Below the pieces are notes generated by a model. That model did no database searches. It was not told where the DNA came from and worked only from the letters and a program-made list of their open reading frames with translations. A stretch of DNA of 205 nt. Origin: Escherichia coli. GTDB lineage: Bacteria; Pseudomonadota; Gammaproteobacteria; Enterobacterales; Enterobacteriaceae. Below, piece after piece: positions 1 through 205 of the stretch (position 1 is its first letter; each line of letters starts with the position of its first letter). The stretch lies in the NCBI RefSeq assembly GCF_003334385.1, contig NZ_QOWN01000229.1; one strand, 5' to 3'. The translations under genes were made by a program, and so were the position numbers.

Positions 1-205
1 CAGGGACATCGCAAACAATATGAAGACGGATTTCTTCTCTGCCGTGACTCTTTTCACTCATTGCGTAACTGTCATGCTCTGGATTATTTAATTCTTTCAG
101 CGGAAATTTTTCCTCAAAGGCTTTATTAAGCCGCCCCTGGTTTCCTTTTACAGCGAATAAATAATCACCTCCCTGTTTTTGTATCTTCTCTGCAATATCT
201 TTCTG
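1..205 (-). CDS. ISAs1-family (H-repeat-associated, YhhI-like) DDE transposase; internal fragment, truncated by the window at both ends
   Basis: Minus-strand frame with first codon at 205..203 (CAG, Gln) and last complete codon at 4..2 (CCT, Pro); base 1 starts the next codon. 68 codons, no stop. Translation: [68 protein letters not shown]. The other two minus-strand frames hit stops within the first ~55 nt, and all three plus-strand frames contain stops (TGA 21-23, TAA 89-91, TAA 127-129). The peptide, including the [13 protein letters not shown] block (bases 134-172), matches my recollection of the E. coli K-12 H-repeat-associated proteins nearly residue for residue. This is recall, not a search result. 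Gene symbol is left blank because several near-identical paralogues exist (yhhI, ydcC, ybfD, plus pseudogene copies) and 205 bp cannot distinguish them. Confidence 0.85.
1..205 (-). mobile_element. Internal portion of an ISAs1-family insertion sequence (H-repeat / H-rpt element); element ends not in window
   Basis: Follows from the transposase call above. No terminal inverted repeats, target-site duplications or insertion junctions are visible, so element boundaries and completeness cannot be assessed. GC is about 40% (82 of 205, counted by hand). Confidence 0.7.

Follow-up and report, generated by a model that had tools for sequence, protein, structure and literature searches.

The 205-nucleotide stretch of Escherichia coli DNA analysed here (the window) is very probably a piece of ybfL, a full-length but nonsense-mutated copy of the insertion sequence ISEc1 in the H-repeat array that closes the RhsC island of K-12-like E. 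coli; this assignment is drawn from sequence comparison. In a six-frame translation, frame 1 of the minus strand stayed open across all 68 codons of the window, and the remaining five frames contained stops. The encoded peptide matched NCBIfam NF033564 'ISAs1 family transposase' (E=6e-16, profile positions 149-217 of 314), and its score of 58.5 bits lies below the 70-bit whole-protein cut-off for the sole reason that the peptide is a 68-amino-acid fragment. Together with 100% identity to annotated ISAs1-family pseudogenes, these results bear out the preliminary description, which had read the window as an ISAs1/H-repeat transposase fragment. Going by the sequence and by what is generally known of DDE transposases, we place the window after the second Asp region (TDAMGCQ, immediately upstream) and ahead of the Glu region (HWHVENKLHW, downstream), and presumably no DDE catalytic residue falls within it.

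Upon comparison with the four H-repeat copies of K-12, we found that the window is the antisense strand of ybfL codons 177-244 in a 378-codon frame, corresponding to approximately positions 672-876 of the 1,290-bp element, and that it is identical to K-12 ybfL at 205 of 205 positions. Alignment to the other K-12 copies gave five mismatched nucleotides for ybfD, three for ydcC and four for yhhI, and these three to five differences make the window's copy of origin identifiable (Table 1). The exact match in K-12 MG1655 is a pseudogene with an internal stop that has ybfQ and ybfD on either side and is named ybfL (b0705) in the reference record. A 205-bp IS fragment can thus be assigned to one chromosomal copy by a few base differences. 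It had been stated earlier that nothing in the window shows its flanks; the window indeed holds no flank information of its own, but its base pattern does identify the copy.

A megablast search matched the window in 5,314 of 5,426 complete E. coli genomes, with a median of four copies per genome and up to nine. Nearly all genome matches are chromosomal, every match listed is annotated as an ISAs1 family transposase, and the best match is at least 99% in 2,519 records. Copies this numerous are also 95-99% alike, and sister copies do occur in other contexts. The window could therefore stem from another H-repeat copy in an unsampled genome (at RhsB, RhsE, the nfrB site, a type VI border, an O-antigen cluster or on a plasmid), or gene conversion could have carried the ybfL pattern elsewhere, and its flanks would then not be those of RhsC. 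We consider such an origin quite improbable. Besides the differences from the other K-12 copies, the window shows two to six mismatches to all other sampled H-repeat copies, and every exact match that we inspected sits at one locus. We inferred the flanks of the window from identical copies in public genomes, opening the exact-match locus in eight strains from different sources, including K-12, out of about 2,500 records matching at 99% or better. In all eight the window falls in the ybfL pseudogene between ybfC and ybgA, with the NCBI annotation 'internal stop'. In the plasmid collection, matches occurred in only 20 of 72,556 records; they ranged from weak to near and none was exact, several of the records are megabase-sized, and one 42.7-kb record that we opened carries the chromosomal genes nfrA, nfrB and ybcH. 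A plasmid origin of the window was rejected on these grounds.

Measured against the 1,291-bp H-repeat of RhsE (ydcC, H-rptE) as a ruler, the ybfC-ybgA interval resolves into three head-to-tail H-repeat copies in the order ybfQ-ybfL-ybfD (C1, C2 and C3). C2 (ybfL), the middle of the three, is the sole full-length copy, and both neighbours are truncated; on its left it adjoins C1 at position 381, and on its right C3 at position 25. C2 has the layout of an ISAs1 element, a single ORF collinear with H-rptE over positions 1-1291, and carries 18-nt terminal inverted repeats (CAGGGAAAGATCACGTAA / TTTCGTAATCTTTCCCTG) that are complementary at 16 of 18 positions (89%); the terminal inverted repeats of ISEc1/H-repeats begin CAGGGAAAGAT. 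In its sequence, which the window matches exactly, its 1,290-bp one-ORF structure, its 18-nt inverted repeats and its NF033564 match, the element corresponds to H-rptC2, the ISEc1/H-repeat (ISAs1 family) known as ybfL. Sister copies go under the NCBI name 'ISAs1-like element ISEc1 family transposase'. From the ISEc1 family at large ybfL differs in being a relic with TAA at codon 18 and without a target-site duplication.

Table 1. Coordinates of the window, the RhsC-linked H-repeat array and H-repeat-associated features at other sites. Identities of array copies are to the ruler element.
Feature	Location	Strand	Basis or detail
ybfL pseudogene internal segment (H-repeat copy C2; ISEc1, ISAs1 family)	window 1..205	-	translation, NF033564, 100% identity to K-12 ybfL
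ybfL-only base among the four K-12 H-repeat copies	window 128		A on + strand, T in sense; other three copies A in sense
Further copy-discriminating positions	window 30, 59, 78-80, 116, 141, 152		alignment of the four K-12 copies
Non-invariant sense-strand positions	54, 65, 78, 90, 126-128, 147, 176		alignment of window with ybfL, ybfD, ydcC, yhhI
C1, ybfQ	element positions 1-381; NC_000913.3 736,302-736,681		90% identity
C2, ybfL	element positions 1-1291 (1,290 bp); NC_000913.3 736,682-737,971		95% identity
C3, ybfD	element positions 25-913		96% identity
C3 right-end piece, older relic	element positions 1225-1291		86.6% identity
C3 including relic	NC_000913.3 737,972-738,925
K-12 RhsC island (9,562 bp)	L004 7394-16955		alignment with e1-39
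16 nt outside array left end	L004 14287-14302		TTTTGCGTTCCATTTG
Complementary start-codon regions in the array	L004 14443-14458, 14823-14838, 16091-16105
Strain 720632 (NZ_CP025842.1), insertion in ybfC	L006 10339-15756		insert about 5.3 kb, IS1A-bounded
Strain 720632, annotated CRISPR array	L006 14462-14855
ECO8855, full intact ISEc1	L009 8009-9299
ECO8855, H-repeat right-end relic (66 bp)	L009 15389-15451
K-12 yncI	L002 10587-11640		about 67% nucleotide identity to H-repeat
K-12 yrhC region	L003 13873-14271
KSC1031 yncI	L021 5915-7041
2021CK-01784, intron-interrupted ISEc1 and adjoining copy	L022 3799-8291
CDE6306, nested ISAs1/H-repeat	L023 7002-8658
S65EC, lone intact ISEc1	L027 7710-9000

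Elements of the ISAs1 family move by means of a DDE transposase that acts on short inverted repeats. ISEc1 would encode such an enzyme and move with a 10-bp target duplication, as the duplications seen in sister copies suggest. The preliminary description had proposed to locate the element's terminal inverted repeats and target-site duplication; the former are present on C2, but we found no target-site duplication flanking either C2 or the array as a whole. C2 presumably lacks one because its neighbours are other H-repeat copies. The missing duplications speak for a rearranged relic and not for exclusion from the ISAs1 family.

The ybfL frame starts at element position 144, and TAA replaces CAA at its codon 18. 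Because of this stop the copy would be unable to make transposase; it also lacks a usable context, and it is in all likelihood dead and immobile, a relic rather than an active member of its family. The remaining 360 codons after the stop are all open. The intact paralogue YdcC carries Pfam PF13808 (6e-33) and PF01609 (2e-30); ybfL agrees with it at 366 of 378 amino acids, and the codon differences are mostly synonymous (32 versus 12 non-synonymous). A long open frame, a synonymous bias and one allele fixed at one site in many strains would also fit a domesticated ybfL, or one still expressed, for example by re-initiation past the early stop, with a product that serves the host at the Rhs locus. 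We regard this as very improbable indeed, since the open frame and the synonymous bias are as expected of a recently inactivated IS copy, and six of the 11 amino-acid replacements (the stop itself excluded) cluster in the first 55 codons, around the stop. Moreover, the flanking copies are truncated, strains exist with one or two copies or without the island, and NCBI annotates ybfL as a pseudogene in all eight strains. As a dead IS copy, ybfL would at present serve only as repeated DNA that recombines with its neighbours.

Two small sequence features accompany the array. The 16 nt just outside its left end are 88% complementary to the transposase start-codon region of each copy (Table 1), and the heptamer TCCATTT is common to this left-flank sequence and to the target duplication of a sister copy in strain ECO8855, described below; the sharing involves two sites only and could be target preference or chance. 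No structured RNA of an Rfam family reached the gathering score over L004 7000-17600, which covers the island and the array.

The array forms the end of a classical Rhs element. At all eight exact-match loci the gene order is rhsC-ybfB-(orphan rhs, ybfO)-ybfC-ybfQ-[ybfL]-ybfD-ybgA-phr. In strain e1-39, ybfA lies directly next to ybgA, an empty site from which the whole island is missing. Alignment with this strain places one island border just past the ybfA terminator and the other 29 bp outside the final H-repeat end, and the block, being missing from e1-39, is therefore accessory DNA. The window lies approximately 1.4 kb inside the right edge of the island, with the core genes ybgA-phr beyond. 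RhsC (annotated by NCBI as 'rhs element protein RhsC') has 1,397 amino acids, with the core end PISNIDPLGL at residue 1238 and a tip of 150 amino acids (151 with the stop symbol). Directly 3' of rhsC lies ybfB, a small ORF and putative immunity gene; ybfO is an N-terminally truncated rhs fragment with a DPIGL motif and its own tip, and ybfC follows. We read this cargo as a putative Rhs toxin/immunity locus. GC content divides the island sharply: the two core pieces have 62% (61.6%) and 60%, the tips and small ORFs 37-40% (tip plus ybfB, 36.7%) and the H-repeat array 39%, compared with 54-56% in the neighbouring core genes. NCBIfam models found no family past the RHS core end in the RhsC tip, the YbfO tip, YbfB or YbfC, and no vgrG, PAAR or DcrB-like genes are annotated beside K-12 rhsC. 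The RhsC element of K-12 was reportedly described by C. W. Hill's laboratory in the early 1990s. Our locus agrees with it in gene order, in the contrast between a GC-rich core and AT-rich tips, and in having an orphan core/tip module and H-repeats at its end, and K-12-like strains show no difference from it. The RhsC region has been given as b0699-b0706 (PMC3032704).

These flanks allow the remaining expectations of the preliminary description to be placed. Its observation is confirmed and its interpretation, that H-repeats mark Rhs and O-antigen loci, is supported. In all eight exact-match strains the copy lies beside rhsC-ybfB-ybfO-ybfC, with core genes reached only 1.4 kb away on the other side, so that the locus is a 9.56-kb accessory island and not an isolated IS among core genes. 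The suggested linkage to O-antigen genes fails for the ybfL copy, for which we found no glycosyltransferase, wzx/wzy or rfb-type gene within 20 kb of the exact-match locus and no nearby tRNA, and holds for a sister copy in strain CDE6306. The adjacent cargo, named earlier as the likelier place for something unusual, is accessory Rhs cargo as expected, but it is that of classical RhsC and we found nothing unusual in it. The locus is the ordinary, already known RhsC-linked H-repeat array of K-12; it is among the accessory loci of E. coli K-12 that have been described best, and a dead IS copy there has little discovery value.

The slot between ybfA and ybgA varies among strains. The stretch from ybfC through the array to ybgA was covered to at least 80% in 2,765 of 5,426 genomes. 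Compared with K-12 RhsC, other strains have one or two H-repeats, IS1 insertions, a pseudogenised rhsC (also in some strains at the exact-match site), another Rhs cassette or an empty slot. SZQ1 retains C1 plus one copy, 2013C_3963 a single copy, and PT109 both C1 and C2, with a different right flank of 360 bp behind them. The spans in SZQ1 (2,594 bp) and 2013C_3963 (2,214 bp) fit in-register deletions of 1,266 and 1,646 bp, sizes that homologous recombination among tandem copies would produce. In-register recombination of this kind may shift the array between one, two and three copies across strains. In strain 720632 an IS1-bounded insertion lies within ybfC. It carries genes for an MFS transporter and a kinase of the FGGY family as well as an annotated CRISPR array, and it resembles an IS1 composite transposon by which a chromosomal CRISPR-bearing segment was brought into the RhsC island. 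In ECO8855 the slot holds a different Rhs cassette, consisting of a DcrB-like gene, Rhs, a small ORF and symE. A full intact ISEc1 stands on its ybfA side, upstream of the DcrB-like/Rhs cassette, and an H-repeat right-end relic lies beside ybgA, in the same position as in K-12 despite the other cargo.

To view the ybfL locus among its sisters, we inspected H-repeat copies at seven distinct chromosomal sites, including genomes whose best match lies elsewhere. Six of the seven adjoin genes for Rhs or type VI secretion effectors, and the seventh is in an O-antigen cluster. In K-12, ydcC follows rhsE-ydcD-yncI and yhhI follows rhsB-yhhH-yrhC, both closing Rhs elements, and yafF is a 280-bp H-repeat fragment beside yafV. 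Elsewhere, sister copies stand between an Rhs/type VI effector cassette and nfrB, or between a type VI secretion cluster or Rhs and yafV, and vgrG, PAAR or DcrB-like genes accompany Rhs at other H-repeat-marked sites. The O-antigen case is CDE6306, where an intact ISAs1/H-repeat is nested in an older, partly deleted H-repeat between wcaM and gnd. An H-repeat remnant likewise marks the recombination junction of the Salmonella O-antigen group D2 (PMC3715488); the remnants in such rfb clusters belong to the same IS family, as does the CDE6306 copy, whereas the window-matching copy lies outside any polysaccharide locus. That H-rpt adjoins Rhs tips has been noted before (PMC3032704), and a study of rhs evolution leaves H-repeats unmentioned (PMC2935791). 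H-repeats would thus appear to build up in O-antigen clusters and at the edges of islands with Rhs/type VI effectors, and this would make the window a marker of such a locus.

The rule proposed in the preliminary description agrees with these seven sites but is not absolute. In genomes of the S65EC type an intact ISEc1 stands by itself at the RhsE site, with the core gene ansP on one side and the core gene yddH on the other; the Rhs element is missing, together with yncG, yncH and pptA (yncG through pptA). The left end of this ISEc1 is of the RhsC-type terminal sequence and not of the RhsE type.

Several sister loci have further peculiarities. The CDE6306 copy has glycosyltransferase and acyltransferase genes on one side and an LTA-synthase-family gene upstream of gnd on the other, and the cluster also contains an IS5 insertion. 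In 2021CK-01784 a group II intron reverse transcriptase gene (ltrA) lies inside one ISEc1, splitting H-repeat positions 1-1087 and 1085-1291 by approximately 1.9 kb; at this site, the border of type VI secretion and yafV, the interrupted copy has another ISEc1, an intact one, as its immediate neighbour. K-12 yncI is a divergent ISAs1-family pseudogene directly upstream of H-rptE. Downstream of rhsB-yhhH, in the yrhC region of K-12, H-rptB breaks into an ORF with its left end. The broken ORF appears to be a fragment of a gene for a HEAT-repeat-like protein, possibly an orphan immunity gene, and in one strain the corresponding neighbour is annotated 'HEAT repeat domain-containing protein'. A Shigella flexneri 8.76-kb 'plasmid' (NZ_CP055112.1) is a small non-mobilizable circle with an intact ISEc1, symE, an HTH regulator and a xerC-like recombinase, and instead of a plasmid the record may represent an assembly artefact or an island that has been excised.

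Two sister copies preserve the traces of insertion. Around the ECO8855 copy a 10-bp target sequence (TGTCCATTTT) is duplicated, and other strains contain its reconstructed empty site with 100% identity across 400 bp; around the KSC1031 copy the duplicated 10-bp target is GCGTTAAACA. The duplications and the matching empty site indicate that ISEc1 has transposed within E. coli. They add comparative evidence for its movement, of which a genome paper reports no experimental observation (PMC3032704). The KSC1031 copy belongs to an rhs-ydcD-yncI-H-rpt block that is 96.7% identical over 5,062 bp to the block of K-12. In K-12 it is located at min 32, and in KSC1031 at the yafV border, behind vgrG and beside yafV. 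The homology stops exactly at the right end of the H-repeat. Only KSC1031 has the full duplication, K-12 having just the left copy of the 10-mer.

One-ended transposition as the means of moving the K-12 RhsE block was not supported: the 10-mer to the right of the element end (GGCATTATTG) was sought upstream of rhsE, and neither it nor even a 7-mer of it was found there. All-against-all BLAST of the 300-bp left flanks of seven copies revealed no homology that would point to a shared unit or target left of the H-repeats; the left-flank difference between the two copies at the nfrB site is due to an IS3 that abuts one of them, and is uninformative as to an H-repeat-specific junction. The RhsC island as a composite transposon bracketed by H-repeat ends was likewise rejected for the RhsC locus, whose ybfA-side border contains no 13-nt H-repeat terminal repeat at up to two mismatches.

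Beyond marking these loci, ISEc1 might take part in their turnover. It would then favour Rhs, type VI effector and O-antigen loci; adjacent cassettes would be deleted, swapped or moved at breakpoints supplied by its ends and its homology, and the array would be part of what diversifies RhsC. We hold this possibility to be rather unlikely on present evidence; it would add to the assignment of the window to the dead ybfL copy and not replace it. The distribution of the seven sites invites it, as does the fact that a recent bona fide insertion, that of ECO8855 with its target duplication and empty site, again lies just upstream of an Rhs cassette. This cassette is bracketed by a full H-repeat and a right-end relic in the same orientation. 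In addition, the homology between the K-12 and KSC1031 blocks ends at the right end of the element, in S65EC this element end joins a point lying 260 bp deeper in pptA, with Rhs gone, and an IS-mediated recombination model has been proposed for Salmonella group D2 (PMC3715488). The several junctions located precisely at H-repeat ends would fit deletions anchored at these ends, together with recombination between bracketing copies. Other observations run counter to it: the ybfA-side border of the RhsC island has no H-repeat terminal repeat, the K-12 RhsE block has no flanking 10-bp duplication, and the left flanks of different copies share no homology. The co-location could also reflect mere tolerance of insertions in AT-rich, dispensable DNA, and the sample is small and without phylogenetic control. 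Somewhat more doubtful still is the stronger form of the proposal, in which an active, site-biased ISEc1 repeatedly makes cassette borders by adjacent insertion, end-anchored deletions and recombination between bracketing copies.

With the window assigned to ybfL at the end of the RhsC island, H-repeats emerge as dependable markers of the loci for Rhs, type VI effectors and O-antigen: all seven sites fit, with the cargo lost in one lineage. If the proposed role in cassette turnover were true, H-repeats would be part of the mechanism by which Rhs, type VI effector and O-antigen cassettes are swapped and deleted, and not bystanders.
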